Positions 4,006-22,026 of a stretch of DNA of 64,000 nucleotides are shown piece after piece. How positions within the stretch are numbered: position 1 is the first letter of the stretch; the number at the start of each line of letters is the position of its first letter. The DNA is taken from contig DASUFV010000064.1 in assembly GCA_036274415.1 (NCBI GenBank), forward strand, positions 2,064 to 66,063, read 5' to 3'. Made by a program: the position numbers and the translations under genes. The notes below the pieces were generated by a model. That model was given only the letters and a program-made list of their open reading frames with translations, did no database searches and was not told the DNA's origin. The DNA is from Actinomycetes bacterium. GTDB lineage: Bacteria > Actinomycetota > Actinomycetes > JAHEKZ01.

Positions 4006-4601
4006 ACAGCAAGTACGATTGGGAGGCACTCGAGCTCGAGTTCGTCACCGGACCCGAGGACCAGAGCGTCCGGTCGTTCGCTGCAGCCAACGGCATCGAC
4101 TCGTGGAGTGTGGTCAACGACCAGGCCAACAAGCGCGAGTGGAAGCGCAAGCGCGCTGAGCACCACGCCGACAAGCGGCGCAAGTCGATCGTGGCGATCG
4201 AGGATGCGACCGCCGAGAAGATCGCCAAGGTCAAGACCGACGCGCTCGACGTGATCCACGCCGCGATCCTGAAGATGGGTCTCGACCTGCAGGACCGGGT
4301 GGTGCTCGACTACGACCACTCGACCGGCAAGCAGTACCAACGAACCATCCCCGGCCAGACGGTCACGCCCGCCGACCTGGCGAAGCTCGTCGACAAGCTG
4401 CTCGTCCTGACAGGCAGCCCGAGCGCGATCCAGGAGAACCGGAACCTTGGCCTCAACCTCAACGGCGGCGATGCCGGATCCGGAGAAGTACCGCCCACCA
4501 TCCTTGAGCTCCTTGCGAGCGTCGCTGGAGAGCGTGGATCTTCCTCCGGAGACGTGGGACGAGCTACGCTCCCAGGCGCTTCGCGCGCTCGTACGAACTG
4601 A
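4002..4601 (+). CDS. terS: terminase small subunit
   Basis: ATG 4002 in an ATGA overlap. N-terminus MNSKYDWEALELEFVTGPEDQSVRSFAAANGID is a typical TerS HTH-type N-terminus. The 3' 131 nt overlap terL in a frame with poorer GC3. Confidence 0.65.
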   Translation: MNSKYDWEALELEFVTGPEDQSVRSFAAANGIDSWSVVNDQANKREWKRKRAEHHADKRRKSIVAIEDATAEKIAKVKTDALDVIHAAILKMGLDLQDRVVLDYDHSTGKQYQRTIPGQTVTPADLAKLVDKLLVLTGSPSAIQENRNLGLNLNGGDAGSGEVPPTILELLASVAGERGSSSGDVGRATLPGASRARTN

Positions 4602-5961
4602 CGCAGTCGAAGGGCTGATCGCCCACAACGAGTATGTCTTCGGGAACAAGGTCTTTCCGCATCACCGGCAGATGCTCGAGCACATCTTCGAGGGCATCGC
4701 CGAGCGGCGGCACAACGTCAACCTGCTCCCGCGCGGCGCCGCGAAGACGACGCACGGCAACACCGGGCTGTGTTCTTGGCTGATTGGCAACTTCCCCGAC
4801 ATCGCGATCGGCTTGATGTCGAACACGCAGGACATGGCCGATGCCATGAGCAAGGCGGTGCGCGACACCGTCGAGTTCAATCCACGCTTCACCGAGCTGT
4901 ACGGCAACCTGAAGTCCGACAGCAAGTGGACCGACAAGGAATGGACCCGGTCAGGGTCGAAGCTGATCGGCACCAACAACCGCACGATGTTCGCCCGGGG
5001 CGTGGGCGGGTCGATCATCAGCAAGCGCTTCGACATCATCATCCTCGACGACATCCTCGACCCGGAGAACACCGAGACTCCGGAGCAGCGTGCGAAGGTC
5101 ACCGAGTGGTTGCTCAAGGTCGTCCTGCCGTGCCTGAAGCCGGACGGCGTGGTGGTGGTGCTCGGCACCCGGTGGGCCGTCGAGGACACCTACGAGCTGC
5201 TGATCACCCCAGAGGATCAGCTGGTCGGCAACGAGCACGGCAAGGGTTGGGACCTGCTTCTGCTGAAGGCCCTCGAGGGCGACCTGAACGACCCCTCCTC
5301 GTTGACCAGCTACTGGCCTGAGTACTGGCCGGTCGACAAGCTGCTCGCCAAGCGCAAGGACCTCGGCACGCCGCTGTTCCTGTGCGCGTACCAAAATGAC
5401 GTCGAAGGACTGATGACGGGCTCGGTCTTCCCGGGCTCGTTCGAGTACTTCGACAGGCTGCCCGAGGGCAAGAGCTACACGATCCGGATGGGCATCGACC
5501 TGGCCAGCTCCGAGAAGGAGCGCGCCGACTGGACGGCCCGGGTCACGACGGCCGAGGACGAAGACGGCAACTTCTACGTCCTGTCGGTGGTCCGCGACAA
5601 GCGCGAGACGCACCATGCCGAGTTCATTCACGAGGGCTGGCTGGCTTACCCGACGATGGGTCTGGTCATCTGCGAGAGCCAGCAGTTCCAGTCGACCCTG
5701 ATCCAGGAGGTTATGGCCGACTACCCACGGATCCCGATCGAGGGTCGCCAGCAGGACACCGACAAGACCACCCGGGCGCGCGCGGTGGCAGCGAAGTATG
5801 AGGCCGGTCGGGTCAAGCATCGGAGCACCCTCCAGGGGTCCGACTTTGAGACCGAGCTCAAGGCGTTCCCGAAAGGGCACGACGACATGGTCGATGCCCT
5901 CGGGTACTCCATGGACCTCGGCGGCGATGAGTTCTTCTTCGCCGCCGTGCAGCGGAGGTAA
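4471..5961 (+). CDS. terL: terminase large subunit
   Basis: Walker A-like LLPRGAAKTT and Walker B IIILDD. C-terminal nuclease region. ATG 4471 is preferred over TTG 4447. Confidence 0.9.
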   Translation: MPDPEKYRPPSLSSLRASLESVDLPPETWDELRSQALRALVRTDAVEGLIAHNEYVFGNKVFPHHRQMLEHIFEGIAERRHNVNLLPRGAAKTTHGNTGLCSWLIGNFPDIAIGLMSNTQDMADAMSKAVRDTVEFNPRFTELYGNLKSDSKWTDKEWTRSGSKLIGTNNRTMFARGVGGSIISKRFDIIILDDILDPENTETPEQRAKVTEWLLKVVLPCLKPDGVVVVLGTRWAVEDTYELLITPEDQLVGNEHGKGWDLLLLKALEGDLNDPSSLTSYWPEYWPVDKLLAKRKDLGTPLFLCAYQNDVEGLMTGSVFPGSFEYFDRLPEGKSYTIRMGIDLASSEKERADWTARVTTAEDEDGNFYVLSVVRDKRETHHAEFIHEGWLAYPTMGLVICESQQFQSTLIQEVMADYPRIPIEGRQQDTDKTTRARAVAAKYEAGRVKHRSTLQGSDFETELKAFPKGHDDMVDALGYSMDLGGDEFFFAAVQRR

Positions 5962-5963
5962 TC

Positions 5964-6524
5964 GTGAGTTTCGACTGGGCAAGCCGTCAGAACGAGCTGG
6001 GTGGTCACAAGCACCTCGCGGTGGACATCATCGCCGAACCAGAGGCTGGCGAAGCGATCGTTGTCTATCGCAAGGCCATCGTGCTAACGAATGCCCAGAT
6101 CAATGCGCTGCCGACAACACCAATTGAGGTCATTGCCGCGCCTGGCGAGGGGCGCATTCTACAGGTCATCGGAGGTGTGCTGTCGAAACATTTCGTGGCG
6201 ACCCATTCAAACCTCGATAACGCAGCGATCTGGGCGCTTTGGTATGGCTCTGGGTCTGATGTCCTTGACAATTACCAGATGGCGTCGAGTCCCTGGCGGT
6301 TCAACGGATCGAGTGGCGACTCGTATACCTCGCTTGGGACCCCGGTATTTCCAGGCACTGGCGCGACTGACGGCTACATCATCCGCCAGTGGTCTGCTGA
6401 CGCTACCGTTGCGGTGAATCAGCCTGTCGCGCTCGCCATCGATAACGCTTCTGCGGGTGATCTGACAGGCGGCACATCCGATACCGTGACCCTCACGGTG
6501 CACTACACCACGGTGGAGACGTAA
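5964..6524 (+). CDS. hypothetical protein in a compositionally atypical gene (lower GC, AT-rich third positions)
   Basis: GTG 5964 follows GGAGGTAA. 186 aa. Noticeably lower GC than its neighbours. Confidence 0.6.
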   Translation: MSFDWASRQNELGGHKHLAVDIIAEPEAGEAIVVYRKAIVLTNAQINALPTTPIEVIAAPGEGRILQVIGGVLSKHFVATHSNLDNAAIWALWYGSGSDVLDNYQMASSPWRFNGSSGDSYTSLGTPVFPGTGATDGYIIRQWSADATVAVNQPVALAIDNASAGDLTGGTSDTVTLTVHYTTVET

Positions 6525-6528
6525 CTGC

Positions 6529-6879
6529 ATGGCCGGGATCCGGGTGCAGCATCCAGAGCAGCGCAACGTGCGCTACACCGTCGTCGAGCCGAACATCCCC
6601 TATCCGGTCCCCTACGTGTGTACCCCGCCTGAGTTCGGCGGCTGCGGGTCCACGCACCTGTTCAAGACGCATCACCTGAACCTGGACTCAACCGGGGCGG
6701 TGATCGTGTCGACCGGCGTCTTCGCGCGGATCAAGGACCGCCTGGCGCTGGATGGCTTCGTTGTTGCCAACGAGGTCAAGAAGCCGCCGAAGATCGGTAT
6801 CGGTATGAGTGCCGACAAGAGGGGCATGACCCCCGGCATCCAGATCGTCCGCTCACCACACAGCAAGGAGCCTCTCTGA
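6529..6879 (+). CDS. hypothetical protein
   Basis: 116-aa ORF. Stop overlaps the next ATG. Confidence 0.55.
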   Translation: MAGIRVQHPEQRNVRYTVVEPNIPYPVPYVCTPPEFGGCGSTHLFKTHHLNLDSTGAVIVSTGVFARIKDRLALDGFVVANEVKKPPKIGIGMSADKRGMTPGIQIVRSPHSKEPL

Positions 6880-7295
6880 TGGCCAACGCGGTCTACGTTC
6901 CCTTCCGGAATGGTGTCCTTGGTTCGCACACGACCCGTGTGGACCTCGATGCCGACAACATCAAGGCTGTCCTGACCGACCACGGCGCCGACACGCCGAA
7001 CGTCACGACGGACGACTTCCTCAACGACATCAGCGCGGGCACGATCGCGACGTCGGCGAACTTCACCGGCAAGACGATCGGCACGGTCGCAGCTGGCGTG
7101 TTCGATGCCGACAACATCACGTTCACGGCAGTGTCGGGCGCCAGCGTCGAGTCGGTGAACATCTACAAGGACTCGGGCACCGCGGCGACCAGCGACCTGA
7201 TCGCCTACTTCGACACGGGCACAGGACTCCCCGTCACGCCGAACGGTGGCGACATCACGGTCACCTGGAACGCGTCGGGCATCTTCACCTTCTAG
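6879..7295 (+). CDS. hypothetical G/T/S/A-rich protein (fibre or decoration-like)
   Basis: 138 aa. ATGA-type overlap. Confidence 0.55.
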   Translation: MANAVYVPFRNGVLGSHTTRVDLDADNIKAVLTDHGADTPNVTTDDFLNDISAGTIATSANFTGKTIGTVAAGVFDADNITFTAVSGASVESVNIYKDSGTAATSDLIAYFDTGTGLPVTPNGGDITVTWNASGIFTF

Positions 7296-7304
7296 GGGGG
7301 CCTG

Positions 7305-7865
7305 ATGGCTGACAACGTCGGGTATACGCCGGGATCCGGGGTCAGCGTCTCCACCGAGGAGGTGACGACCCTCAATGGTGGCGCTGTTTCCGCCCAGCAC
7401 GTTCAGCGCGTGGCGAATGCGCTGCGCACAGCTGACGGCACGGCGATCGACCTGCCGGGTGACTCGACCAACGGACTCGACGTCGACGTCACCCGGCTTC
7501 CTGTCCCGCACGCCTCGATCGGGACCCCTCTGTCGATCGGACTTGCGACCAGCTCGACCCAAACGAGCGCCAACCTCGTCGCGGGCACGGGCGGTCAGAG
7601 GATCTACGTCACCCATCTGACGATCGCCACCGCGGGGACCACCTCGGGTCGCGTGTCGATCTACTGGGGGACCGGCGCGTTCACGGCGGGCACGAGCCCG
7701 ACCCTGTTCGACGGCGAGTTCAAGCCATCGTCTACCAGGGAGGCCGGAGTGGCGCTGGTATTCCCATTCCCGGTCGGTGGCGCGTCTGCCACCGGCGACA
7801 ACCTGCGCATCACAACCAGTGCCGCGATGACGATCTATGTCACCGGTCAGTGCTACAAGGCGTGA
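7305..7865 (+). CDS. hypothetical G/T/S/A-rich protein
   Basis: 186-aa ORF with the same composition as its neighbours. Confidence 0.55.
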   Translation: MADNVGYTPGSGVSVSTEEVTTLNGGAVSAQHVQRVANALRTADGTAIDLPGDSTNGLDVDVTRLPVPHASIGTPLSIGLATSSTQTSANLVAGTGGQRIYVTHLTIATAGTTSGRVSIYWGTGAFTAGTSPTLFDGEFKPSSTREAGVALVFPFPVGGASATGDNLRITTSAAMTIYVTGQCYKA

Positions 7866-7868
7866 CGC

Positions 7869-8567
7869 GTGGCAATCACGCGAACGGCCAAGGGAACAGC
7901 CTCGCTCAAGACGTCCGGCACGACGCTGACGTTGGCGTCGGTGGCGATGACGACCGGGCATCTCCTTGTCGTCTCGCTGGCCTACGACGACCAGACGCTC
8001 GACTCGGTCACGTGGGGATCTCAGGCCCTGACACTTGGTGACGCCGTCCTCGGAGCCGGGGTACGAACCCGCTTGGCGTGGGGAACGATCGTCTCTGGTG
8101 GGACGCAGACCATCACAGCGACGTGGGCTGCGAGCCTCGTCGCCAAGGCATTCACCGCGTCGTCCTACAACTCGAGCGTAGGCGGGATCGTTCCGACCGA
8201 GGACAGCAACGCGACCAACACCGGGATCGGCACCAGCGCGACTACGGCCGCGCTGGCCGCGATCGTGGGTGGAACCGAGTCAATCCTCGTCGGCGTCGTC
8301 GGCACCGAGGGACCATCTGGCGACACAGCTGGCACGTGGTCAACCCCGAACACCAACGGGCAGCGAGTCGGGACGACCGGCAACCCAGCCGCTGGCAACG
8401 TGACGTGCTCTGAGGCGTATCAGCTCGCGCCGTCCGCGGCCAGCACGCCCTCGCTGTCCAAGACGGGCATGACCAGTCGGGATTGGGGAGCCGCGCTGCG
8501 CGCGTTCTACTGGGCGGCCCCGGCGACCGACACAGGTGGCCTACTCGGTAGTGGCTTCTTCGGCTAA
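7869..8567 (+). CDS. hypothetical G/T/S/A-rich protein
   Basis: GTG start. 232 aa. Confidence 0.55.
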   Translation: MAITRTAKGTASLKTSGTTLTLASVAMTTGHLLVVSLAYDDQTLDSVTWGSQALTLGDAVLGAGVRTRLAWGTIVSGGTQTITATWAASLVAKAFTASSYNSSVGGIVPTEDSNATNTGIGTSATTAALAAIVGGTESILVGVVGTEGPSGDTAGTWSTPNTNGQRVGTTGNPAAGNVTCSEAYQLAPSAASTPSLSKTGMTSRDWGAALRAFYWAAPATDTGGLLGSGFFG

Positions 8568-8578
8568 GGAGGTAATCC

Positions 8579-11500
8579 ATGAGCCTCCTGACGCTGCTCC
8601 AGACGACCGTCACCGCGCCGAGTGATGCCTACGGGGCGGCTGTATTCGAAGACCAGCCTATTGCGTTCCTGCGGCTCGACGAAGCCTCTGGGGCCGCCGA
8701 TGACTACATGTCGCCGGGCCGGACTTGGTCCAACAACGGGACGATCACCCAGGGCGTTAGTGGGGTCTTGAACGCACCTGGTGGCACGGCAGTCGAGTTC
8801 GACGGGGTGAACTCGGGTTACTTCCAGAGCCCAGTATCGACTGCTCTCGACATAGCTGACGTGTTCACGCTTGAGGCGTGGATCAAGCCAGACACGTTCA
8901 GTGGTGGCAAGGTCATCCTCCAGAAGGGCACCGGCACGGGCCGGATCACGTGGGAGATGATCGCGACCACGTCACTGGGCCTGTACGTCAATGGCGTCGA
9001 GGCGGCGCATACAGGCGATGTATTCACGGCGGGCCAGCCGTACCACGTCGCTGTCACCAAGAACGGATCGACGACCAAGCTCTACGTCAACGGCGTCGAT
9101 CAGACGATCTTGGGCACCAACAACACGGTCGGGTCAAGCGGTGACACGTGGCGGATCGGTGAGCACAACTCGGGCGGTGAGCTGTTTGACGGCGTCATCG
9201 ACGAAGTCGCGATCTACAACACGGCGCTGTCCGCGGCCCGGGTCAAGGCTCACTACGACGTCGGTGCGAGCGCGTACGCCCGCGAGGTGTTTAGCGACAG
9301 CCCCGTTGCCTACTACCGCATGGGCGAGCCGTCCGGCGACGTTCTCGACGACATGGGCGGGGACTCCGGCGCCGCCACTGGCTCGCTCACGCGCGATGTC
9401 GTCGGTGGCCTGAATACCAGCAACGACGACGGGGCGATCGACTTCGACGGCTCGACCAGCTACGTCTCGGTGCCCCATCAGTCCAAGCTCAATCTCGGCA
9501 ACGGCCCGATGTCGTTCGAGTTCTGGATCAAGCTCGGGAACCTTGGGCTCACCGAGCAGAAGATCATCGACAAGGACACGACCGGTGCGTACCAGGTCGT
9601 CAAGCTGTCGTCGGGAGCGGTACAGCCGAACGGCATCGCGTTCGGCAAGGCCGATGTCGCGTTCATCGCGTCGTCGACGGTCAGCCTTGACTTGGATTGG
9701 CATCACGTCGTCATCACGAAAAGCGGCTCGACGACGAAGATATACATCGACGCCGTCGATCGAACCGGAACCGTGACCGATCAGACGCTCGGCGACACCG
9801 GCGGATCGCTTTACATCGGCTCGCGGCGCGGCGGTGCATTGGAGTTCCTCGACGGCAGCCTCGACGAGCTCGCGATCTACAACACCGAGCTGAGCTCTGC
9901 TCGCATTGCTGCACACTACGACGCGGGAAAGTCGACCGGCGCGCAGTCGGTCAGCGTTGGACTGATCAACCAGGCGGCGACGACGTTCACGCCGACGGTT
10001 ATCGCAGTACGGAACCTGTCGGTCGGCCTGATCAATCAGGCTGCGGCGACGTTTACGCCGACCGTCCTGCAGCAGCAGTTCGTTTCAGTCGGCCTGATCA
10101 ACCGAATGGCCACAGCCAGCACGCCGACCGTCACCTCGCTGGCGACGGTGTCGGTCGGGCTGATCAACCAGGCGGCTACGGCGTTCGCGCCGACGGTCCT
10201 GCAACAGCGGTTCGTCAGTGTGGCGCTGATCAATCGCACAGCGACAGCGTCGACGCCCACGATCACGTCAGTAGCGACGGTCAGCGTTGGTCTGATCAAC
10301 CGCACAGCGGCCACGTTTGCGCCAACGATCACGACCGGCGCGGCGGCGCTCACGGTCGGGCTGATCAATCAGACAGCGGCCACCTTCGCGCCGACGGTCA
10401 TTCCGGGCGCCGTCAACGTCAGCGTTGCGCTGCTGAGCCAGGCCGCGTCGGCGTTCGCACCGACCGTTGGCCGGAACGTCAGCGTTGCTCTGATCAGCCA
10501 GGCTGCGGCGACGTTCACACCGAACATCGGCCGGAGCCTGTCGGTCGGCCTGATCAACCAGACAGCGGTCACATTCACGCCGAGCGTCGGCCGGAACATC
10601 GGCGTTGGGCTTGTCAACCGGACGGCGGTCGCCTCGGCGCCGACCGTCACGAGCGTCGCCTCGATCTCGCTGGCCCTGATCAACCGGACGGCAGTCGCCT
10701 TGGCGCCGACGATCGACGCCGGGCAGGCGGCGATCAGCACGGGGCTGATCAACCAAGCAGCGGTGGCGCTCACGCCAACGGTGACCTCGCTGGCCACGGT
10801 CAGCGTCGGGCTGATCAACCGGACGGCAACGGCCAGTACGCCGACGATCCAGCAACAGCAGTTCGTCGGGCTTGCGCTGATCGACCGGACGGCGGTTGCC
10901 CAGACGCCAATCGTCACGAGCGTTGCCTCGGTCAGCTTCGGGCTGATCGACAGGACGGCCCAGGCGCACGCGCCAGCGATCAGCTACCAGCAGTTCGTCT
11001 CGCTGGGCTTTGTCAGCCAGACGGCGGTTGCCCAAGAACCGACGATCACGACCGGCGCAGGCAGCGTGGTCGTCGATACGATCAACCAGGCGGCGACGAC
11101 GTTCACGCCGACCGTTACGACGGGCGCAGCGACAGTCAGCGTCGCGCTGATTGATCGAACTGCCGCGGCCTTCGCCCCAACGATCACAACCGGCGCGGTT
11201 GGGATCAGTGTCGAGCCCATCAATCAAACGGCAGCAGCGCTCTCGCCGTCGGTCGCGAACATCTACACGATCAGCGTTGGGCGGATTGATCGAACCGCCA
11301 CAGCGTTCAGCCCGGGGATCGTCCAGGCCGGGTTCATCTCGCTGGGTCGCATCAATCAGGAAGCTGCCACGTTCGCTCCGGCGATCACGTCGGGCGAGGC
11401 GCAGGTCGTTGTCGGACTCGTCAGCCAGTTGGCTGCGACGTTCGCCCCGGCCATCGCCGCTCAGGCGTCGATCAGCCTGGGACAGGTCAACCAGACCGCC

Positions 11501-11737
11501 GCTGCATTCGACCCGACGCTGACGACGTTCGCGACGATCAGCTTCGGGAGGGTCGACCAGCCCACGGCGGCGTTCGCGCCGACCGTGAAGCAGTTCGGCG
11601 ACACGCTGCCGTACCCGGTGGACGTGTCGATCTATGTGGAAGCCAAGCCGAGCGCCAGCCTCACCGTCGAGGACGGCTACAAGGCTGAGCTCGCCGCGGA
11701 CGGCTCAATGCTCGCCACCCTGACGAGAGGAACCTGA
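8579..11737 (+). CDS. large fibre-like protein with 2 LamG (concanavalin A-like lectin) domains and about 25 tandem 22-aa repeats
   Basis: 1052 aa. The two LamG signatures are FTLEAWIKPD...DEVAIYNTALSAARVKAHYD and FEFWIKLG...DELAIYNTELSSARIAAHYD. These are followed by repeats of the form VSVGLINQAAATFAPTV, then a C-terminal unique domain. Confidence 0.85.
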   Translation: MSLLTLLQTTVTAPSDAYGAAVFEDQPIAFLRLDEASGAADDYMSPGRTWSNNGTITQGVSGVLNAPGGTAVEFDGVNSGYFQSPVSTALDIADVFTLEAWIKPDTFSGGKVILQKGTGTGRITWEMIATTSLGLYVNGVEAAHTGDVFTAGQPYHVAVTKNGSTTKLYVNGVDQTILGTNNTVGSSGDTWRIGEHNSGGELFDGVIDEVAIYNTALSAARVKAHYDVGASAYAREVFSDSPVAYYRMGEPSGDVLDDMGGDSGAATGSLTRDVVGGLNTSNDDGAIDFDGSTSYVSVPHQSKLNLGNGPMSFEFWIKLGNLGLTEQKIIDKDTTGAYQVVKLSSGAVQPNGIAFGKADVAFIASSTVSLDLDWHHVVITKSGSTTKIYIDAVDRTGTVTDQTLGDTGGSLYIGSRRGGALEFLDGSLDELAIYNTELSSARIAAHYDAGKSTGAQSVSVGLINQAATTFTPTVIAVRNLSVGLINQAAATFTPTVLQQQFVSVGLINRMATASTPTVTSLATVSVGLINQAATAFAPTVLQQRFVSVALINRTATASTPTITSVATVSVGLINRTAATFAPTITTGAAALTVGLINQTAATFAPTVIPGAVNVSVALLSQAASAFAPTVGRNVSVALISQAAATFTPNIGRSLSVGLINQTAVTFTPSVGRNIGVGLVNRTAVASAPTVTSVASISLALINRTAVALAPTIDAGQAAISTGLINQAAVALTPTVTSLATVSVGLINRTATASTPTIQQQQFVGLALIDRTAVAQTPIVTSVASVSFGLIDRTAQAHAPAISYQQFVSLGFVSQTAVAQEPTITTGAGSVVVDTINQAATTFTPTVTTGAATVSVALIDRTAAAFAPTITTGAVGISVEPINQTAAALSPSVANIYTISVGRIDRTATAFSPGIVQAGFISLGRINQEAATFAPAITSGEAQVVVGLVSQLAATFAPAIAAQASISLGQVNQTAAAFDPTLTTFATISFGRVDQPTAAFAPTVKQFGDTLPYPVDVSIYVEAKPSASLTVEDGYKAELAADGSMLATLTRGT
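9950..11580 (+). repeat. in-frame tandem repeat array (period about 63-66 nt, about 25 copies) inside gene 8579..11737
   Basis: Recurring GGNCTGATCAAYCRGRCNGCNRYNRCNTTYRCNCCNACN units seen directly in the sequence. Confidence 0.85.
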
Positions 11738-12108
11738 TGGCCACGAAGCTGCTTGTAGACCGCGGCGACGACGAGATCATCCACATGGCCATCACCAAGG
11801 ACAACGTCGCTGTCAATCTCGAGAACTGCAAACTGTGGTGGTACATCGGCACCTCGTCTGTCCCAGCCGTCGTTCCGAATGCGATCGTGACCAAGGACAC
11901 CGACGGGGCCGACATGGTCGTGATCGACGAGCCGGGCGGACTGATCGACATCACGCTGCATCCAGAGGACACCAACGACATCGCGGTGGGCTTCCTGAAC
12001 AAGGACCTGCCGTGGGAGGTCCAGATCCTCGATGCCGGGGGCAAGATCCAGACGATCGCCCGGGGCACGATCAAGATCCAGGCAGACATCATCCGAGCGG
12101 AGGCGTAG
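11737..12108 (+). CDS. hypothetical protein
   Basis: ATGA overlap at 11735-11739. 123 aa. Confidence 0.55.
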   Translation: MATKLLVDRGDDEIIHMAITKDNVAVNLENCKLWWYIGTSSVPAVVPNAIVTKDTDGADMVVIDEPGGLIDITLHPEDTNDIAVGFLNKDLPWEVQILDAGGKIQTIARGTIKIQADIIRAEA

Positions 12109-12109
12109 C

Positions 12110-12307
12110 GTGCCGGAGCTGAAGTTCCGCGACGGCAAGCGCGTTGTGCCCGACTACATGGCGCGCCTGATGGCTGGGATCGAGGTCAAGAACATGACCT
12201 ACGAGGAGGCCATTCGCGCGATGAACCACAAGATGGAGAACGACCACGTGGAGCGGGCTATGTCTCGCATCGTGGACCGCCACTTCATGGAGAACCCCCG
12301 CGGATGA
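12110..12307 (+). CDS. hypothetical small protein
   Basis: GTG 12110 two nt after the upstream TAG, preceded by GGAGG. Coding part of track ORF 12032..12307. Confidence 0.45.
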   Translation: MPELKFRDGKRVVPDYMARLMAGIEVKNMTYEEAIRAMNHKMENDHVERAMSRIVDRHFMENPRG

Positions 12308-13602
12308 GCGTGATCGACACGATCCGGGATTACGTCAGCCGCCCGACGCGCGTGCCGAACAACGTGGCGATCGCTGTGGCGTCTACCGAGCGCGGCCGCG
12401 TCGCCAAGACGAACGCGCGTCGGCTTCGGACGTGGTCGGAGCGATCCGAGTGGATCCGTGCTGCGATCAACATCCGCAAGACGCAGGTGTCGGGTGCTGA
12501 GTGGGACATCGTCCCCGCCGACCCGGATGGGCCTGCGATCGACCTCGGGCTGCAGAAGGAGATCCGGGACCGGCTCGAGTTCGCCAACCCGAAGGCCGAG
12601 AACTTCAACGTCCTGATGGACAAGATCGTCGAGGACATCATCGTGCTCGACGCAGGCGTGATCGAGATCGAGCCGAACCTGATCGGTGAGCCGCTGTACT
12701 TCCATGACGTGGCTGGCGAGGAGGTCCGCGTCAGCTCCCTGTGGGACGGCATGGATCCCGACGAGCCGCGCTACTTCTGGTATCCGGACAACTTCGAGCG
12801 GGGACGCTGGACCAACGATCAGATCGTCTACATCATGGAGACCAGCCGGACGAACTCGGTGGTCGGCCTCTCCAAGCTCGAGACGCTCGCGCTGTCGATC
12901 GACAGCGAGCTCGACGGCCACGCGTTCAACGCGCGCCAGGTGCGCAATGCGGCGCCGGACGGCCTGTTGCACCTCGGCAAGGGCGCCAAGCAGGAGAACG
13001 TCGAGAGCTTCCGCGCCTTCTGGCAGGCCGAACAGGGCCGCGGCGCGATGGCCATCACGGGCGGCAGCGATGCCCCGGCGTGGCTCAAGTTCCACGACAG
13101 CAACCGCGACATGCAGTTCCTGGAGTGGCAGATCTACCTCGTCCGCAAGATCGCCGCGGTCATGGGCATGGACCCGGGCGACCTGGGCATCGGCATGGAC
13201 ATCAACCGCTCGACGGCCGAGGTCCGCGACAACCAGACCGAGGACCGCGGCATCCGGCCGCTGATGAACACGCTGGCCAAGCACATCACGCGCGAGATCG
13301 TCTGGCACCCGGGCTTCGGCGGGCAGGACAACAACCTGCGCTTCCACTGGACGAAGCTGAACCTCAAGGAGTCGGCTGCTCGGGCGGCGATCTACAAGAT
13401 CGCGCTCGGCGGCACGCCGTACATGAGCGTCAACGAGGCTCGCAAGGAGACCGGCCGGGATCCGTGGGGCCCCGAGTTCGACGATCCGATCATCACCAAT
13501 CCACAGGGCACGTTCTCACTCAAGGACATCCCGACGATCCGGGAGTTCCTCGACATGAAGAACCAGGCCAAGGAGTTGCCGAGTGGGGCGACGGACGATT
13601 GA
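12304..13602 (+). CDS. portal protein
   Basis: 432 aa with an HK97-type portal region (...QFLEWQIYLVRKIAAVMGMDPGDLG...). ATGA overlap at the start. Confidence 0.85.
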   Translation: MSVIDTIRDYVSRPTRVPNNVAIAVASTERGRVAKTNARRLRTWSERSEWIRAAINIRKTQVSGAEWDIVPADPDGPAIDLGLQKEIRDRLEFANPKAENFNVLMDKIVEDIIVLDAGVIEIEPNLIGEPLYFHDVAGEEVRVSSLWDGMDPDEPRYFWYPDNFERGRWTNDQIVYIMETSRTNSVVGLSKLETLALSIDSELDGHAFNARQVRNAAPDGLLHLGKGAKQENVESFRAFWQAEQGRGAMAITGGSDAPAWLKFHDSNRDMQFLEWQIYLVRKIAAVMGMDPGDLGIGMDINRSTAEVRDNQTEDRGIRPLMNTLAKHITREIVWHPGFGGQDNNLRFHWTKLNLKESAARAAIYKIALGGTPYMSVNEARKETGRDPWGPEFDDPIITNPQGTFSLKDIPTIREFLDMKNQAKELPSGATDD

Positions 13603-13798
13603 CCGCCCGCCGACCAAACGACAGATCGAGTGCTTTGAGACCTACGCCAGGTTCGGCGACGGCGCAGAAGCTGCTCGCAGGCTGGGCATCAGCATTCAGC
13701 AGTTGAAGCGCATGTGCGGCCAGTACTATCGTCGCGTCGGCGCCAACAGTGGCGTCCAGGCCGCCTACCTGACGTGGGGCCCGAAGGACAACGCATGA
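13583..13798 (+). CDS. small HTH protein (sigma-70 region 4 / LuxR-like helix-turn-helix)
   Basis: GTG start after AAGGAG. TKRQIECFETYARFGDGAEAARRLGISIQQLKRM. Confidence 0.55.
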   Translation: MGRRTIDRPPTKRQIECFETYARFGDGAEAARRLGISIQQLKRMCGQYYRRVGANSGVQAAYLTWGPKDNA

Positions 13799-14418
13799 TC
13801 GAACTCGAGCCGGTCGATCCCGAGTTCTACGACCGGGAGTACTACACCAGCGGGACCAAGTCGAACTACGCGCCGTACGGCCCCGGGTCGTGGGCCGACT
13901 GGATCGTCGATATGGCCATGAACCACGTGAAGCCGAGGCCGTCGAGCGTGCTCGATGTCGGTTGCGCGTATGGCTTCCTGGTGGAGCGGTTCTGGAACCG
14001 GCTGGGAGTTCCGGCCTGGGGGTTCGACATCTCCCGGTACGCCATCGAGAAGCAGGGGTTTCTCGGGCGGACATGGGTGGGCGATTGCGCGGATCCGGCT
14101 GCATGGAAGACCGTCGACCTTACGCTCGCGTGCGAGCTTGGTGAGCACCTGACGCCAGCGCAGGCACAGCAGATGCTTCGGAACGCATTCACGTTCAGCA
14201 ACCGAGCGTTGATGCTCATCGCGGTTGACCTGGGCGACTACGACAGTCACGCAGAGACCGATGGATCGCACATCCACGTGGTGCCGATGGCCTGGTGGGA
14301 ACAGGCAGCACGAGAGGCAGGCTGGAGCGTCGCGGACGCCAGCGCGTTCAATGAAGACTGGCGTTCGAGCCAGATGGGTTGGTCGGGCCGCTGGCTCTAC
14401 CTGACAAAGGAGGCGTAA
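13795..14418 (+). CDS. class I SAM-dependent methyltransferase
   Basis: ATGA overlap. Motif I VLDVGCAYGFLVERF. Confidence 0.75.
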   Translation: MIELEPVDPEFYDREYYTSGTKSNYAPYGPGSWADWIVDMAMNHVKPRPSSVLDVGCAYGFLVERFWNRLGVPAWGFDISRYAIEKQGFLGRTWVGDCADPAAWKTVDLTLACELGEHLTPAQAQQMLRNAFTFSNRALMLIAVDLGDYDSHAETDGSHIHVVPMAWWEQAAREAGWSVADASAFNEDWRSSQMGWSGRWLYLTKEA

Positions 14419-14421
14419 GCA

Positions 14422-14979
14422 ATGGCAGCTGCCATCACCGCCCGAACAGGATCGGGCAGCGTCGTCAAGGCCAAGACGGCGGTCCATGTCGAGGTCACCG
14501 GGGCCGAGGCCAACGTCGGCGACACGGGTCCCGTCAGTGTCACCGCAGCGTCGGTGGCGAACCCAACGCAGCTCACCACCGCCACGGCCCACGGGCTGAC
14601 GACGGGCGAGACGGTGACGCTCGCCGGGTTCGACACGACCCCGACGATCAACGGCTCGCGGGTCGTAACCGTGGTCGACACGACGCACTTCACGGTCCCG
14701 GTCAACGTGTCCGCCGTCACCGACGGCACGGGCACCGTGGAGCGGACGAAGAACGTGGCAGGGCTCGAGGTCGGCACCGAGAAGCGCTACTACCTGCTGG
14801 TGGACGCTCCGGCCGGTGTAGATGACGCCCGCAGCCACGTGTTCCAGACGTCCGCCGACGGCAAGCACGTCTGGGACGACTACATCTTCCCCGCGGCCGG
14901 GTCGTACACGATCCGCCTGCGAGACATGCTCGACGACAGCGACGTGGCGACCCTCGCGGTCACCGTCGACGCTGCCTGA
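14422..14979 (+). CDS. hypothetical T/G/V-rich protein (possible virion or decoration protein)
   Basis: 185-aa ORF. Confidence 0.55.
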   Translation: MAAAITARTGSGSVVKAKTAVHVEVTGAEANVGDTGPVSVTAASVANPTQLTTATAHGLTTGETVTLAGFDTTPTINGSRVVTVVDTTHFTVPVNVSAVTDGTGTVERTKNVAGLEVGTEKRYYLLVDAPAGVDDARSHVFQTSADGKHVWDDYIFPAAGSYTIRLRDMLDDSDVATLAVTVDAA

Positions 14980-16559: not shown

Positions 16560-16780
16560 CCGGCCGTCACCCGCTATCTTGCGGGGGACTAGGGCTCCCG
16601 GGCCCAACGCCGGACGGACGGTGCGCAATGCGCTGTCCGACCGACCCGGTCGATCCCCACGGGAAGACGTGGTTCCCCGAGCCGACGTGATCTCGGCGAG
16701 TGGGGTATGGGACCACGCACCGGGTCTTTCTCTTTCAACCATCAGCCGGGCGTGAGTGCGCGTCCGGCGTGGAGGTATGC

Positions 16781-18049
16781 ATGGCGCGGGTTCTTTGGAT
16801 CGGTGACGCTGGCTCGCACACGGGCTTCGGCCGCGTGACCCGCGAGCTCACCACTGGGCTCCTCGATCGCGGACACGACATCACGGTCCTGGGGCTGAAC
16901 TTCACGGGCGATTACGACCCGGACATCGACCAGCGGCTGAAGGTGTACCGAGCCGACCTGTACGGCTACAACGATATGTTCGGGGTGCGGCGCGTACAGG
17001 AGATGGTCGACCACGTCGAACCCGACGTCAGCGTCGTCATGCACGATCCGGCGGCAGTATGGCAATACCTCTGGGAGAACCCATACGACCCGGGGCAGAG
17101 GCTGTTCAGCCGTCCGGTGCTGGCCTACTGCCCGGTGGATGGGTACGACTACCCCACCGACTGGACCGAGATGCTGCCGCAGGCCACGAACTTCGTGACC
17201 ATGAGCCAGCACGGCGCGAGCATCTTCAAGCCGTCCGCCGTCGTTCCACACGGCGTGCGGTCGGAGTTCTTCTATCCCGTCGCGGAAGGTGAGCTGCTGA
17301 CGGACGACGGGCAGGTGCTGGGCTCCAAGGAGGAGTGCAAGGAGCACCTCGGGATCGACCCGTCTCGGTTCCTGGTCCTTCGCGTCGACGCGAACTCGGG
17401 TCGCAAGGACTTCGCCGCCACGATCCGCGCCGTCGCTCCGCTGTTGGAGCGTCAGCGCGACATGACGATGTGGTTGCACACCAACACAGATCCGCGGTCG
17501 CCGGGCGTGAAGATCCGCTCGATGCTCAACCGCTACGACCTGGCCCCAACCCAGGTGATGCTGTCGGACTTCGGCAACGGCACCAAGGGCTGGCCAGAGA
17601 ACAGATTGCGCATCCTCTACAACGCAGCGGATGTGTTCGTCAGCACGAGCCGGGGAGAGGGCTTTGGCCTGACGATCGCCGAGGCCATGGCCTGCGGCGT
17701 CCCCGTCATCGCGCAGAACGTGTCGGCGATCCCCGAGACCGTCGGGCCAGGCGGCGTCCTGATCGACTCCGACCGGCGCATCACTGTACCCGCGGGCCAG
17801 GACTTGTGCCTGGCCGACATCGACGCCTTCACCGAGGCCCTCGAACGGCTCTACACCAACGAGGTGTGGCGCACCGAGCTCGGGCAGGCAGGCCGGAAGC
17901 ACGTCACCGAGTCCTTCAGATGGGACACCGCGGTGGACAGCTTCCACGACTTCATCGAGCGGATTGCCGCTCGCTGGAGAGCATCGCAGGAGGCACCAAC
18001 CGATGGATCTGAACGAGCAGATCTCCCTGATGAAGGCGCTGGGGGTTGA
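16781..18049 (+). CDS. GT4-family (GT-B fold) glycosyltransferase
   Basis: GGAGGT precedes ATG 16781. EGFGLTIAEAMACGVPVIAQ is the GT4 E-x7-E region. About 422 aa. Preceded by a terminator and a roughly 220-bp leader. Confidence 0.85.
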   Translation: MARVLWIGDAGSHTGFGRVTRELTTGLLDRGHDITVLGLNFTGDYDPDIDQRLKVYRADLYGYNDMFGVRRVQEMVDHVEPDVSVVMHDPAAVWQYLWENPYDPGQRLFSRPVLAYCPVDGYDYPTDWTEMLPQATNFVTMSQHGASIFKPSAVVPHGVRSEFFYPVAEGELLTDDGQVLGSKEECKEHLGIDPSRFLVLRVDANSGRKDFAATIRAVAPLLERQRDMTMWLHTNTDPRSPGVKIRSMLNRYDLAPTQVMLSDFGNGTKGWPENRLRILYNAADVFVSTSRGEGFGLTIAEAMACGVPVIAQNVSAIPETVGPGGVLIDSDRRITVPAGQDLCLADIDAFTEALERLYTNEVWRTELGQAGRKHVTESFRWDTAVDSFHDFIERIAARWRASQEAPTDGSERADLPDEGAGG

Positions 18050-19280
18050 CCTCCAGAAGGACGCCGAGTATCTCGAGCCGGTCGAGGCCACCGAGATCAA
18101 GTTCAAGATCTATGCGCGCGACCACGACGGGCACGGGGCTGCGCTCAAGGCGTGGACCGAGAAGATCGCCGACAGCGACGAGGAAGACTGGCTGCTGTCG
18201 GGCATCGCGTCCTCGACGATCAAGGACCTGCACGGCGACACCATGCTGCCGTCGGCGCTCATCGACATGGAGCGCAGCGCCAAGAACAACCTGACGATCT
18301 TCGGGAACCACGAGTACCATGTCCCCGAGGACGTCTACGGATCGGTGCTCGCGGCGTCGATCGTCGCGTCGGGCGAGGTCGACGAGAAGACCGGCGCCCC
18401 GCTGTACGACCTGAACTTCGAGAAGATCCGCGTCAACAAGCGAAACGAGCGGGCCAAGAACAGCTGGCTGGCCATGAGCGATGGCACCAAGCTCGGCCTG
18501 TCGATCGGCGCGCGGATCCCCGAAGGCGGCGCGATCCGCAACAAGAAGACCGGCACGCTGCTGATCGCCCACGTCGACCTGCTCGAGACGAGCATCGTCG
18601 GCATCCCGGCGAACCCGCGCAGCTGGATCGACAGCGCCACGCGCGCCGTCAAGGCGTACGAGGTGCAGACAGCCAAGACCGCATCCGGTATCGAGGTGCC
18701 GGTCACGGTCAAGGTCGCCACGGTGACCGAGCCAACCGAGACCACGCTCGGAGAGGACGGCGTCGAGGAGGGCAAGACCCCCGAGACCATCGTCTCCGAT
18801 GACAAGGCGGGGGAGCCCGCCGATCCTTCCACCAACACTGACGCACCGTCGCAGGACGCTCAGCTGAGCCAGCCTGAGAACGATGGGGCAGACGCCGCGC
18901 CCGAGGTCATCGCAGCTGCGAACGATCTTCTGGACGAGACCGCCAACGCTCAGGTGCCGGACGAGGCGAAGGAACTCCTGATGAGCCTTCGCGAAACACT
19001 CGCCACCGTCACCGCCGAGTTGATTGATGTGGACGAAGCCCGGAAGGCCGCAGAGCAGCGAGTGGATGAGCTCGAAGCGAAGCGCGTCGAGGAGCACGAG
19101 GAGGCGAAGGACATCGTCACTCGGGCTCTTGATCTGGTCAACCAGGTGGGCAAGCTGCCTGCTGGCCGGATCGCATCGTTCAAGCACATCCAGCGCACCG
19201 CCGACCAGCTCTCGGACGACTACGAGTCGCTCGGGTTCGTGCCGGAGGTCGCCAACATGCTCAGGCAGAGGAACACATGA
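18003..19280 (+). CDS. prohead protease (HK97/S78-like) fused to a coiled-coil scaffold-like C-terminal region
   Basis: AGGAGG precedes ATG 18003. LSGIASSTIKDLHGDTMLPSA. C-terminal ELIDVDEARKAAEQRVDELEAKRVEEHEE. Confidence 0.75.
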   Translation: MDLNEQISLMKALGVDLQKDAEYLEPVEATEIKFKIYARDHDGHGAALKAWTEKIADSDEEDWLLSGIASSTIKDLHGDTMLPSALIDMERSAKNNLTIFGNHEYHVPEDVYGSVLAASIVASGEVDEKTGAPLYDLNFEKIRVNKRNERAKNSWLAMSDGTKLGLSIGARIPEGGAIRNKKTGTLLIAHVDLLETSIVGIPANPRSWIDSATRAVKAYEVQTAKTASGIEVPVTVKVATVTEPTETTLGEDGVEEGKTPETIVSDDKAGEPADPSTNTDAPSQDAQLSQPENDGADAAPEVIAAANDLLDETANAQVPDEAKELLMSLRETLATVTAELIDVDEARKAAEQRVDELEAKRVEEHEEAKDIVTRALDLVNQVGKLPAGRIASFKHIQRTADQLSDDYESLGFVPEVANMLRQRNT

Positions 19281-21661: not shown

Positions 21662-22026
21662 TCAACATCGACCTGGGGCCACTGCAGGCGCTCGCCGAGC
21701 AGTTCATGCAGAGCGAGGTGGAGATCGAGCACCGCTCAGCGCCAGCGCAGGACCCGGGCGACCGCACGGGCGACAACACCGTGTCGTACGAGACCAGTAC
21801 GACGACGACCAAGGGCTGGTTCGTCGACCAGGGCACGCACACCTTCAGTGGCGGCCGGATGGTCGAGGTCACCGACCGCCCGCTCCTGCGGGTTCCAGTC
21901 GGTACCGAGATCGCCAAAGGCGACAGGGTGACCATCAACGGCGGTGACACGTGGACCGTGGTCGACGCTTCCAGCGACGAGACGTGGCCGGTAATGGTCA
22001 AGGTCGAGCTCGTCAGGATCGAGTAG
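21658..22026 (+). CDS. head-tail joining / head closure-like protein
   Basis: 122 aa. ATGA overlap. Position and size match this role. Confidence 0.45.
   Translation: MINIDLGPLQALAEQFMQSEVEIEHRSAPAQDPGDRTGDNTVSYETSTTTTKGWFVDQGTHTFSGGRMVEVTDRPLLRVPVGTEIAKGDRVTINGGDTWTVVDASSDETWPVMVKVELVRIE

Follow-up and report, generated by a model that had tools for sequence, protein, structure and literature searches.

Seven genes (g1-g7) lying between the large terminase subunit gene (terL) and the portal gene of an uncultured siphophage constitute a mobile cassette that moves as modules among related phages, and we put the chances at about even that they encode a dispensable, glycan-binding accessory fibre of the virion, most likely situated at the tail tip. 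The siphophage is our reading of the source, a contig of 66.6 kb assigned to a MAG labelled 'Actinomycetes bacterium'; the cassette lies inside its late operon. Below, the window is the whole 64,000-nucleotide stretch of this contig that was analysed, and L-numbers (L003, L030, L057 and so on) designate the contigs or loci of other phages used in the comparison.

Gene content and boundaries of the insert

The original prediction had held that terL and the portal gene are usually adjacent, and this is the case in 56 of the 62 related contigs, where a gap of 188-375 bp accommodates only g8. Since g8 alone separates the two genes in these contigs, it is a core gene and the insert comprises g1-g7 (5964..12108). 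All eight genes said to intervene are present, tightly packed on the + strand (Table 1), but the number inserted is therefore seven rather than eight. The gap here amounts to 6.3 kb, and the sole comparable contig is L030, whose gap of 5.7 kb carries homologues of g4 and g5. At the left boundary, a GGAGG motif overlaps the end of terL, whose stop codon TAA occupies 5959-5961 and whose real start is probably downstream of 4447, and g1 begins with GTG. At the right boundary, g8 most likely starts at GTG 12110, because GGAGG precedes it at 12099 and because its homologues (~63-76 aa; L030, L057, L077 and L093) have their starts at the equivalent point; this start fits better than 12032, as proposed earlier, and g7 and g8 consequently do not overlap. 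No promoter-like sites were found in the g1-g7 block, terminator-like sites were not in excess, and the genes are coupled without seams.

Two compositional features that had been pointed out were recovered as well. The first gene is indeed lower in GC (58.6%, with a GC3 of 0.67 as opposed to 0.80-0.92 in its neighbours), and the combined fraction of Gly, Thr, Ser and Ala reaches 0.39-0.56 in the products of g1, g3, g4, g5 and g6 versus 0.26-0.28 in terL and the portal protein.

Table 1. Positions in the window of the insert, its flanking genes and the related tail-tip gene
Feature	Coordinates	Strand	Description
terL, large terminase subunit, left boundary of insert	4447..5961	+	phrog_38, 8e-81; Terminase_6C
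g1, 186 aa	5964..6524	+	orphan, lower GC
g2, 116 aa	6529..6879	+	conserved Cys and His, zinc-knuckle-like
g3, 138 aa	6879..7295	+	homologue of Bxb1 gp31 'tail wing arm'
g4, 186 aa	7305..7865	+	Gly/Thr/Ser/Ala-rich
g5, 232 aa	7869..8567	+	all-beta (AlphaFold2)
g6, 1052 aa	8579..11737	+	two LamG domains, 25 repeats, 41-aa C-terminal tail
g6 LamG domain 1, aa 79-222	8813..9244	+	best Pfam stretch, PF13385
g6 LamG domain 2, ~aa 290-450, boundaries approximate	9446..9928	+	second PF13385 stretch
g6 repeat array, aa 458-1011	9950..11611	+	25 units, named here the LINQTA repeat
g7, 123 aa	11737..12108	+	phrog_1084, 8.5e-11
g8, 65 aa, core gene, right boundary of insert	12110..12307	+	homologues directly 5' of portal gene in most relatives
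portal	12304..13602	+	PF04860, 1e-27; phrog_12
large tail-tip protein, 1679 aa	31615..36654	+	3' of putative tape measure gene; PF13385, 2.7e-19

The LamG and repeat protein g6

The two LamG domains noted earlier in the 3.2 kb gene g6 are clear: PF13385 (Laminin_G_3) matches two stretches with an E-value of 1.5e-45 and a score of 155.5 bits, against a gathering cut-off of 27.6 (Pfam HMM), and the region of the second domain is in addition matched by PF02210 (aa 337-416) and phrog_8510 (aa 277-452). The tandem repeats, described as about 25 near-identical units, were confirmed in number (25) but are not near-identical, their 17-residue cores being on average 52% identical in protein and 63% in DNA, with 84% for the best DNA pair. 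Individual units measure 20-25 aa, mostly 22, and the core reads [VI]-S-[VL]-G-L-I-[ND]-[QR]-T-A-x-[AT]-F-x-P-T-[VI], with Pro15 kept in 25 of 25 units and Ala10 in 24 of 25. The array is also detected in the DNA (TRF and a repeat finder), with periods of 60, 66 and 132 nt.

The LINQTA repeat is rare. It was found in just 25 proteins among 5.8 billion clusters and is absent from all cultured phages searched; no Pfam family covers aa 458-1011 and no solved structure matched them. The collagen-like G-X-Y pattern is absent, the period being 20-25 aa. An AlphaFold2 monomer of aa 440-1052 was predicted as all-beta with a low-confidence pLDDT of 57, so that any fibre shape of the repeats may be read only from a low-confidence model; a Foldseek search of the PDB with it returned no match with E <2, its top non-significant matches being mostly beta-solenoids. 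Apart from the LINQTA units and the paralogous LamG stretches, the window has no repeat families, and it contains no long direct-repeat pair above ~85% identity that could serve as the template/variable repeat pair of a diversity-generating retroelement.

The g6 gene itself is not in the tail module after the tape measure gene, where a paralogous unit is instead carried by a 1679-aa protein encoded 3' of the putative tape measure gene. The N-terminal 410 aa of this protein are a g6 paralogue (32% identity over 319 aa by BLASTP, plus many repeat matches), consisting of four LINQTA repeats (31726..32004), a LamG domain (32158..32622) and three more repeats (32656..32844), followed by a Gly-rich linker and then a hub-like domain. 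The motif scan and the DNA repeat family both place LINQTA copies at the g6 and tail-tip loci. The label hub-like is a putative one, given because of where the gene lies and of homology to relatives that are themselves uncharacterised; residues 480-883 are homologous to an M23-peptidase protein encoded after the tape measure gene in L084, and the domain found no match in the PDB or in cultured phages. LINQTA repeats are likewise fused to the same hub-like domain in two metagenomic proteins, and in L080 the gene order runs Dit (phrog_33), g2, g3, P0020 and a tail protein, where P0020 carries repeats together with a g5-like and a hub-like domain.

The smaller cassette proteins

Judged by its alignments, g3 is a member of the Bxb1 gp31 'tail wing arm' family (phrog_644, 2e-34). 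Its residues 38-138 align with residues 7-106 of Bxb1 gp31 (PDB 9d93_Ra, 'Tail wing arm, gp31', E 1.8e-14), to which it is 39% identical by tblastn (5e-13), and the same search retrieved 447 records from cultured phages, among them Bxb1 gp31 and Blessica gp61, the latter annotated as a minor tail protein. The g2 gene is always found directly 5' of g3. Its family numbers 177 cluster representatives, nearly all of them unfused proteins of 100-130 aa, in which H8, C31, C39, H43, K46 and H49 are invariant, and its product is 58-79% identical to those of the genes immediately 5' of g3 homologues in L057, L077, L080 and L086-L093; the PDB and Pfam gave no match for it. Cultured phages yielded no match whatever for g1, g2 or g4, and g1 also had none in Pfam, PHROGs, the PDB or the loci compared.

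The g4 protein has more than 203 metagenomic homologues; a module of ~65 aa at its N-terminus and a region of ~120 aa at its C-terminus are conserved separately from each other. Over the first 65 aa it shares 82% identity with P0115, a protein from the tail-tip locus of L084, a relative whose genes there run in the order tape measure, M23 peptidase protein, 548 aa, 191 aa, P0115, and a g4-like gene lies immediately 3' of g3 in L098, L101, L103, L104, L107, L108 and L112. The model of g5 (pLDDT 89.9, pTM 0.88) matched in BFVD, by Foldseek, entries labelled 'minor tail protein' from phages of Mycobacterium and Gordonia with probability 1.0 and TM 0.5-0.73; these labels are largely synteny-based annotations. 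No significant match to the PDB was found. Profile-profile comparison aligned the g5 family with the N-terminal domains of LamG- or repeat-carrying proteins (hhalign 96.5%, E 8e-10), and the g5-like domain is accordingly recognised by homology, in other phages, as an N-terminal fusion to LamG domains and 22-aa repeats. As for g7, the small gene that follows the large protein in L003, L011 and L051, in the same position, also matches phrog_1084, and those of L003 and L011 additionally match the N-terminal parts of minor-tail-protein PHROGs.

A cassette that changes place

Comparison with related genomes, which had been proposed as a check, revealed a variable block, absent between terL and portal in the same 56 of 62 contigs. 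Its genes are nonetheless found elsewhere in relatives at 64-83% identity, versus 36-65% for portal and terL, which bears out the suggestion of a displaced, mobile cassette. Thus g2 and g3 are 71-83% identical to genes located directly 3' of the portal gene in L057, L077 and L086-L091 and 3' of the capsid gene in L093, contigs whose portal proteins are just 36-49% identical to that of the window, and g5 shares 64-78% identity with genes located elsewhere in L030, L042 and L083. Conservation is far higher among cassette genes than in the core genes on either side, which points to exchange.

The place occupied here is, however, less odd than it had seemed. LamG and fibre genes were thought to be out of place before the portal gene, whereas in many uncultured lineages the g3-led cassette usually comes directly after portal or terL; it directly follows the portal or capsid gene in about a dozen relatives. 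The gene immediately 5' of the g3 homologue is the portal gene in L100, L101, L124, L129 and L139 (four portal PHROG families), terL in L099 and L126, and in L117 a large gene that matches the 'head-tail adaptor' family phrog_332. Among 103 ORFs upstream of g3 homologues at 25 loci, terL and portal were the commonest families, and no tail family was in the top 25. The original prediction had offered a fibre or decoration system of the head, a displaced side-fibre cassette or an acquired host-range module; its fibre-like nature and its displacement as a mobile cassette have stood, and the abnormality of its position has not.

Relation to known systems

The Bxb1 tail wing is composed of a base (gp30), an arm (gp31) and a brush (gp33), of which gp31 and gp33 attach to gp30, itself a D-Ala-D-Ala carboxypeptidase; the wing is dispensable, since one natural relative has none of the three genes and deletion of gp30 leaves a viable phage (PMC12646305, which summarises Freeman et al., Cell 2025). 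Downstream of the arm gene, Bxb1 and the present phage alike encode Gly/Thr/Ser/Ala-rich proteins, and in both the module seems dispensable, given a Bxb1 relative without it and its absence at this site from most relatives here. The two arrangements differ in several respects. Neither the surroundings of g3 nor the window proteins scanned (Pfam, PHROGs) yielded a gp30-like carboxypeptidase, the small Cys/His protein g2 preceding g3 instead; no similarity to the gp33 brush was detected; the present cassette adds LamG domains and a protein with a 25-unit repeat; and the Bxb1 wing lies at the end of the tail genes, unlike the cassette between terL and portal. When the cassette genes were compared with the tail-end regions of Bxb1 and Blessica, g3 alone matched.

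Similar mixtures of likeness and difference emerge elsewhere. The minor tail proteins of the SEA-PHAGES collection (Corndog, Blessica gp57-62, and Gordonia and Mycobacterium BFVD entries) share the g5 fold (probability 1.0), include the 51% identical counterpart of g3 in Blessica gp61, and have N-terminal domains that the g7 family resembles, but their genes are located 3' of the tape measure gene. Cluster O mycobacteriophages (the Corndog group) carry glycosylation genes within the head gene module and, like the present phage, have a methyltransferase gene and glycosyltransferase gene(s) in the interval from portal to protease (PMC4351075). In those phages, by contrast, the g3 homologue sits with the rest of the minor tail genes after the tape measure gene, whereas here the cassette joins the head-proximal variable region. 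In this cluster, Catdawg gp60, which from its position and size is apparently the counterpart of g3, was detected by mass spectrometry in purified virions (PMC4351075). Finally, two clear Laminin_G_3 domains ally g6 with LamG virion proteins (PF13385; phrog_8510 and phrog_701, 'virion structural protein'), a domain type that also occurs in cyanophage structural and baseplate proteins and in the phage's own tail-tip protein; what sets g6 apart is the pairing of LamG with a LINQTA array and a g5-like partner, which is limited to a few uncultured phages.

Where might the cassette proteins act?

The tail tip is suggested by the homology of g3 to the tail-wing arm, the g5 fold of minor-tail entries and the recurrence of the g6 unit in the tail-tip protein, together with the tail-locus order of L080, the g4 N-terminus in the tail locus of L084 and the likeness of the g7 family to minor-tail N-termini. 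On this basis, g2 and g3 would serve as an adaptor or arm, the repeat array of g6 as a long beta stalk holding out the LamG domains, and g4, g5 and g7 as further subunits or attachment domains. Such a fibre, most likely assembled at the tail tip, would bind cell-envelope glycans, and this binding would aid reversible adsorption and shape host range. Gene position, as read from the contigs, speaks against the tail tip, because the cassette resides among head genes (after portal, terL or the capsid gene) both in relatives and in unrelated lineages. On the tail-tip reading, the portal-side position would represent a recombination-tolerant junction used by the cassette in many lineages, and it need not reveal where on the particle the proteins are located.

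The same position is the main argument for placing the g1-g7 proteins instead on the head or neck, as capsid fibres or collar whiskers, with the g3 arm docking onto the capsid or the portal-connector region, an alternative that we hold to be rather unlikely. It would explain why cassette genes are so frequently encoded beside portal or capsid genes: a cassette of g2-g3 and a repeat protein follows the portal gene in L057, L077-L079 and L086-L091, and in L092 and L093 it has the capsid gene on one side and connector genes on the other; portal or terL precedes g3 homologues in other lineages, of which L099 and L126, two unrelated ones, repeat the terL, cassette, portal order of the window; and in L083 and L085, which have a lambda-E-type capsid, g4- and g5-like genes come directly 3' of the capsid gene and adjoin GT4 glycosyltransferase genes. 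(The capsid gene is adjoined by cassette homologues in L083, L085, L092 and L093, an adjacency not seen in the window.) Against it, Bxb1 gp31, the sole family member of known location, is at the tail tip (PMC12646305), hub-like tail proteins contain the repeats, LamG and the g5-like domain as physical fusions, and no match to head decoration or head fibre families (phi29 gp8.5, T4 Hoc, lambda gpD/HDPD and similar) was found for g1-g7 in Pfam, PHROGs or the PDB. Moreover, position is a weak guide: members of the same families are encoded in tail loci as well (L080, L084, and cluster A and O mycobacteriophages). Extended to the other lineages, the idea would be that the g3-led cassette is an unrecognised head/neck fibre system, widespread in uncultured tailed phages, whose arm docks lectin fibres at the portal vertex or capsid. 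We think this broad form unlikely; it would account for the placement of the cassette next to portal, terL or capsid genes in no fewer than five unrelated lineages of portal and terminase and, were it true, would make the LINQTA repeat a novel fold for building fibres.

The products might also not belong to the virion at all, being encoded by late accessory genes, for example secreted or surface lectin-like proteins that might alter the host envelope, block superinfection, or act as targets or partners of the phage glycosyltransferase. Portal-flanking junctions of actinophages do take non-structural insertions (methylases, Endo VII, orphans; PMC4991695, PMC4324244), methyltransferase and glycosyltransferase genes share this region here and in relatives, and g1 and g2 have no structural annotation. 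Nevertheless, we judge this highly improbable, in that the g3 family is present in the virions of Bxb1 (solved structure) and apparently of Catdawg (mass spectrometry), both g5, by its fold, and g7, by its family, match annotated minor tail proteins, the g6 domains recur in the tail-tip protein, and no N-terminal hydrophobic segment resembling a signal peptide was noticed when the translations were read by eye. That the arrangement is just the standard, conserved one for these phages, with nothing special about the block, would sit well with the recurrence of cassette families in many relatives and lineages, but it is contradicted by the 56 of 62 related contigs with g8 alone at the junction, by the variation of cassette position and content from contig to contig, and by the exchange to which the conservation of cassette over core genes points; we regard it as hardly credible.

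Implications

A rare 22-residue beta repeat linking LamG lectin domains to tail hub proteins is now defined, and it offers a target for structural study and for host-range engineering in actinobacterial phages. If the accessory fibre proposed here is real, accessory adhesion fibres of the Bxb1 'wing' type would occur beyond mycobacteriophages and away from the far end of the tail operon. In many uncultured phages their genes would move together as a cassette that inserts before or after the portal gene, and annotation by gene order would routinely mislabel them. Does the recurrent association with the portal gene mark the site where the fibre is mounted, or merely a site that tolerates insertion? 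The question is a testable one.

A recurrent insert beside the portal gene

Every open reading frame of the block lies where the original prediction had placed it, and eight genes (g1-g8) do separate terL from the portal gene of this siphophage, but the last of them is not part of the insertion. A portal-based scan of IMG/VR yielded 73 related contigs (portal ~36-54% identical), and the terL-portal gap was measured on the 62 fetched contigs, two Logan contigs included, that carry both genes. Because in 56 of them this gap (188-375 bp) holds a g8 homologue alone, g8 belongs to the core and the insert consists of g1-g7. The remaining gaps span ~0.7 kb (three contigs), 1.7 kb (L057) and 5.7 kb (L030), with 6.3 kb in the window, and the distant contig L070 is organised differently. 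Homologues of g8 are ~63-76 aa long, and g8 itself probably begins at a GTG that has GGAGG ahead of it. Within the 3' end of g7, a 24-nt unit in two tandem copies (83% match) encodes GGKIQTIARGTIKIQ and, read in another frame, gives the long g8 ORF a spurious N-terminal extension rich in Arg and Ser.

The lower GC noted for g1 was borne out (58.6%, GC3 0.67; 65% for the window), as was the richness in Gly, Thr, Ser and Ala, which characterises g1 and g3-g6. The terL stop and the g1 start are 2 nt apart and have one GGAGG in common, and the block genes are translationally coupled. Neither promoter-like sites nor an excess of terminator-like sites were found in the block, and no signal of either kind marks the cassette boundaries.

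The comparison with relatives thus upholds an insert, but one that recurs at several positions. Its genes are clearly more similar between contigs than the core genes are: g2 and g3 share 71-83% identity with the genes that immediately follow portal in L057, L077-L079 and L086-L091, and there this pair is followed by proteins carrying the 22-aa 'LINQTA' repeat found in g6, such as the 838-aa P0001 (repeats, LamG, repeats) or a 1674-aa protein in L087. In these contigs the glycosyltransferase (GT4) gene lies further downstream, with protease and capsid genes beyond it in L077-L079. Other arrangements comprise capsid gene, g4-like gene, g2, g3 (L093), and g2, g3, a 558-aa protein with a g5-like domain and repeats, connector genes (L092). 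In L030, where the insert occupies the same gap as in the window, a phrog_240 gene comes first, followed by genes for a 476-aa protein whose C-terminus is g4-like, a g5 homologue of 64-66% identity and a protein of 795 aa, and then by a small gene resembling g7. Most other relatives have sugar-modifying enzymes and a different large protein (~800-1330 aa) between the portal and glycosyltransferase genes; Pfam and PHROG scans of these large proteins gave almost no matches. A small protein usually follows, which, like g7, matches phrog_1084 where tested (L003, L011, L051).

The phage and its late genes

Since two block proteins are identical to entries (NCBI VFX15_02815 and VFX15_02820) on a 66,577-bp contig of a metagenome-assembled 'Actinomycetes bacterium', the window is a nearly complete phage genome, binned together with an actinomycete. 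The window has no tRNA genes; the + strand carries the late structural genes, from ~3.8 to 42 kb and in the order tabulated, and the - strand the early genes, past that point. There is no close reference genome, because terL is at most 30% identical to that of any cultured phage, and megablast of the block against cultured phages returned no match.

Late genes in order along the window (from Pfam and PHROG scans), with features of related contigs at the end
Feature	Position	Length
terS-like gene		
terL	4447..5961	
Cassette, g1-g7	5964..12108	
g6	8579..11737	1052 aa
Tandem repeat in g7	12030..12076	
GTG, probable start of g8	12110	
Portal gene	12304..13602	
SAM-dependent methyltransferase gene	13714..14418	
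Three small genes, among them		
Thr/Ala-rich protein gene	14422..14979	185 aa
GT4 glycosyltransferase gene	16700..18049	
Protease gene		
SU10-type major capsid protein gene	19277..20686	
Connector genes	21658..23225	
Major tail protein gene		
Putative tape measure gene	24658..30504	1948 aa
Tail-tip protein with hub-like domain	31615..36654	1679 aa
Paralogue of the hub-like region	36654..38240	528 aa
phrog_16701 peptidase gene	40932..41624	
phrog_240 gene	41625..42023	132 aa
PTPS and ParB_N genes, L077	1888..2858	
PTPS and ParB_N genes, L078	2372..3405	
P0037 gene, L083	10001..11155	

Several late genes deserve a remark of their own. The methyltransferase and GT4 genes both lie between the portal and protease genes, an arrangement that resembles their placement in Cluster O mycobacteriophages and suggests glycosylation of the virion; the GT4 gene directly upstream of the protease gene is kept in many relatives, and some have epimerase-like and GT2-like genes in the portal-protease region, to judge from N-terminal sequences. 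The 185-aa Thr/Ala-rich protein, for which no family match was found, has a C-terminal ~60 aa conserved in ~30 related contigs, in genes downstream of the portal gene, and may serve in the head as a conserved accessory or decoration protein. The putative tape measure protein contains an in-frame HNH endonuclease domain (aa 600-685; several HNH PHROGs down to 3e-12), and its 2110-aa counterpart in L084 also matches HNH_5; this could be an intein-type or domesticated HNH insertion. At the end of the late region, the 132-aa protein (phrog_240, 'head protein', 3e-28) is 39% identical to the product of the gene that opens the post-terL insert of L030, so that its family, too, switches between the two variable loci; the adjoining phrog_16701 peptidase (1e-54) is possibly a lysin. 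Finally, in L077 and L078, two relatives with the post-portal cassette, the terminase genes are closely preceded by a ParB_N gene and a gene for a 6-pyruvoyl-tetrahydropterin synthase (PTPS) of queuosine/archaeosine type, a hint that phages of this group may modify their DNA bases.

The repeat protein g6 and its tail-tip paralogue

The two LamG domains ascribed to g6 are present and clearly belong to Laminin_G_3 (E 1.5e-45). The predicted array of about 25 near-identical units of 21-22 aa fared less well: there are indeed 25 tandem units (aa 458-1011), but they vary from 20 to 25 aa and have diverged (mean core identity 52% at the protein and 63% at the DNA level). Each combines a 17-residue core, [VI]S[VL]GLI[ND][QR]TAx[AT]FxPT[VI], in which Pro15 is invariant and Ala10 nearly so, with a linker of 3-8 residues, and the alternation of TSLAT/TSVAT with LQQQF linkers accounts for the 132-nt super-period given by TRF. 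A recent expansion of the repeat was rejected, as units are on average only 63% identical in DNA; so were a collagen-like array, whose repeat pattern is not that seen here, and DGR-type hypervariation, there being no template/variable repeat pair. AlphaFold2 models the array, at low confidence (pLDDT 57), as all-beta with about two short strands per unit; the best fold matches of this model are mostly beta-solenoids, none of them significant, so that a beta-solenoid, a triple beta-spiral and other folds are all possible.

A search with the repeat region among 5.8 billion protein clusters found 25 proteins, all metagenomic, in which the repeat is partnered by LamG, a pectate-lyase-type beta-helix, a g5-like domain, a small fibronectin-like C-terminal domain or a hub-like domain, the last in P0020 and P0022. 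The window has its own example in the 1679-aa protein, encoded two genes downstream of the putative tape measure gene: its N-terminal ~410 aa hold a LamG domain, 32% identical to that of g6, with four repeats before it and three after it, followed by a Gly-rich (poly-Gly/Ser) linker and then by the hub-like domain, which is homologous to a protein encoded after the tape measure gene in L084. The L084 protein has no repeat/LamG extension and carries a Peptidase_M23 domain instead. In this phage the repeat/LamG unit thus serves to extend a tail-tip protein, and g6 is its enlarged, free-standing paralogue. The adjacent gene encodes a 528-aa paralogue of the hub-like region; other tail proteins measure 191 and 234 aa.

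The other cassette proteins

By sequence, g3 is a member of the family of Bxb1 gp31, the 'tail wing arm' (PDB 9d93_Ra, E 1.8e-14; phrog_644), and tblastn against cultured phages gave 447 matches, for the most part in mycobacteriophages. Pseudomonas phages of the genus Hollowayvirus have a homologue, 47% identical to g3, among their structural genes. The Bxb1 tail wing is the closest known system; a wing-base partner (gp30-like) was absent from the window proteins scanned, and the genomic context differs. As summarised in PMC12646305, gp31 and the brush, gp33, attach in Bxb1 to the base, gp30; a natural relative is devoid of all three wing genes, and deletion of gp30 is viable.

Always upstream of g3 lies g2, whose family of 177 cluster representatives consists almost entirely of small stand-alone proteins and has invariant H8, C31, C39, H43, K46 and H49. 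This pattern looks like a zinc knuckle; Pfam scans of the family gave zinc-finger matches at chance level at most, and no known relative was found. PDB sequence searches returned nothing significant for g1, g2 (single sequence and profile), g4, g5, g7 or the hub-like domain, nor did tblastn against cultured phages match g1, g2, g4 or the hub-like domain; g1 is an orphan. More than 200 metagenomic homologues exist for g4, and a g4-like gene stands directly 3' of g3 in a separate lineage. The first 65 aa of g4 share 82% identity with P0115, from the tail locus of L084 (tape measure, M23-peptidase protein, 548 aa, 191 aa, P0115).

The model of g5 is confident and all-beta (pLDDT 89.9). Foldseek found no significant match in the PDB and many matches of probability 1.0 in BFVD, including proteins annotated as minor tail proteins of Mycobacterium and Gordonia phages. 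Profile-profile comparison relates the g5 family to the N-terminal domains of P0002, P0006, P0007, P0016, P0020 and proteins of 482 aa (L077) and 558 aa (L092) (hhalign 96.5%, E 8e-10), whereas a plain hmmsearch barely detects them; these proteins run on into LamG, 22-aa repeats or both, a fusion pattern that ties g5 functionally to g6. A recurrent C-terminal domain of ~100 aa ('...TPTLEF...HFxIQIDTANTFDT...DQTGWEYWDGAAW...YRRVRAG'), without a Pfam match, ends g5-like and LINQTA-repeat proteins (P0037, P0003, P0009) and is probably a distal binding domain. As for g7, related small proteins of its family (phrog_1084) also match N-terminal parts of minor-tail-protein PHROGs; shared PHROG matches are all that connects it to the small proteins following the large ones, since hhalign of g7 and its L051 homologue with those of L003, L011, L030 and L071 reached a probability of 4%, which is not significant.

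Tail or head?

Where on the virion would such a cassette belong? We favour an accessory fibre at the tail tip, a reading that stands an even chance of being right. It draws on the solved location of gp31, on hub-like proteins to which repeats, LamG and the g5-like domain are physically fused, on the L080 order (Dit (phrog_33), g2, g3, P0020, tail protein) and on the g4 N-terminus held in common with a tail-locus protein. An appendage of the head or neck, the rival reading, is unlikely, and the evidence for it is positional throughout, if striking. Within the phage group the cassette always sits among head genes, and at 25 loci from other lineages terL and portal families dominate the ORFs upstream of g3 homologues. 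Directly upstream of g3 homologues, half of ten loci have a portal gene (four different portal PHROGs) and a sixth a large phrog_332 'head-tail adaptor' protein; terL and a tail-fibre-like gene take this place in two each. In L099 and L126 the order is again terL, cassette, portal, as in the window, with terL and portal genes that belong to unrelated families, and in L083 and L085 g4- and g5-like genes follow lambda-E-type capsid genes and adjoin a GT4 gene.

Gene position, however, contradicts itself, as the cassette families occur in head and tail loci alike, and the structural and fusion evidence for a tail-tip fibre was therefore given more weight. Head-decoration families gave no match to cassette proteins. 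That the cassette acts outside the virion altogether is very improbable; Catdawg gp60, at the position of the g3 homologue, was detected in purified virions (PMC4351075).

Insertions between terL and the portal gene are known in actinophages, the reported cases being small non-structural genes (PMC4991695, PMC4324244), and a limited literature search turned up neither the 22-aa repeat nor any fibre cassette that flanks the portal gene. The finding brings together an accessory cassette of wing or fibre type, a repeat for which that search gave no earlier description, and a location next to the portal gene that recurs.
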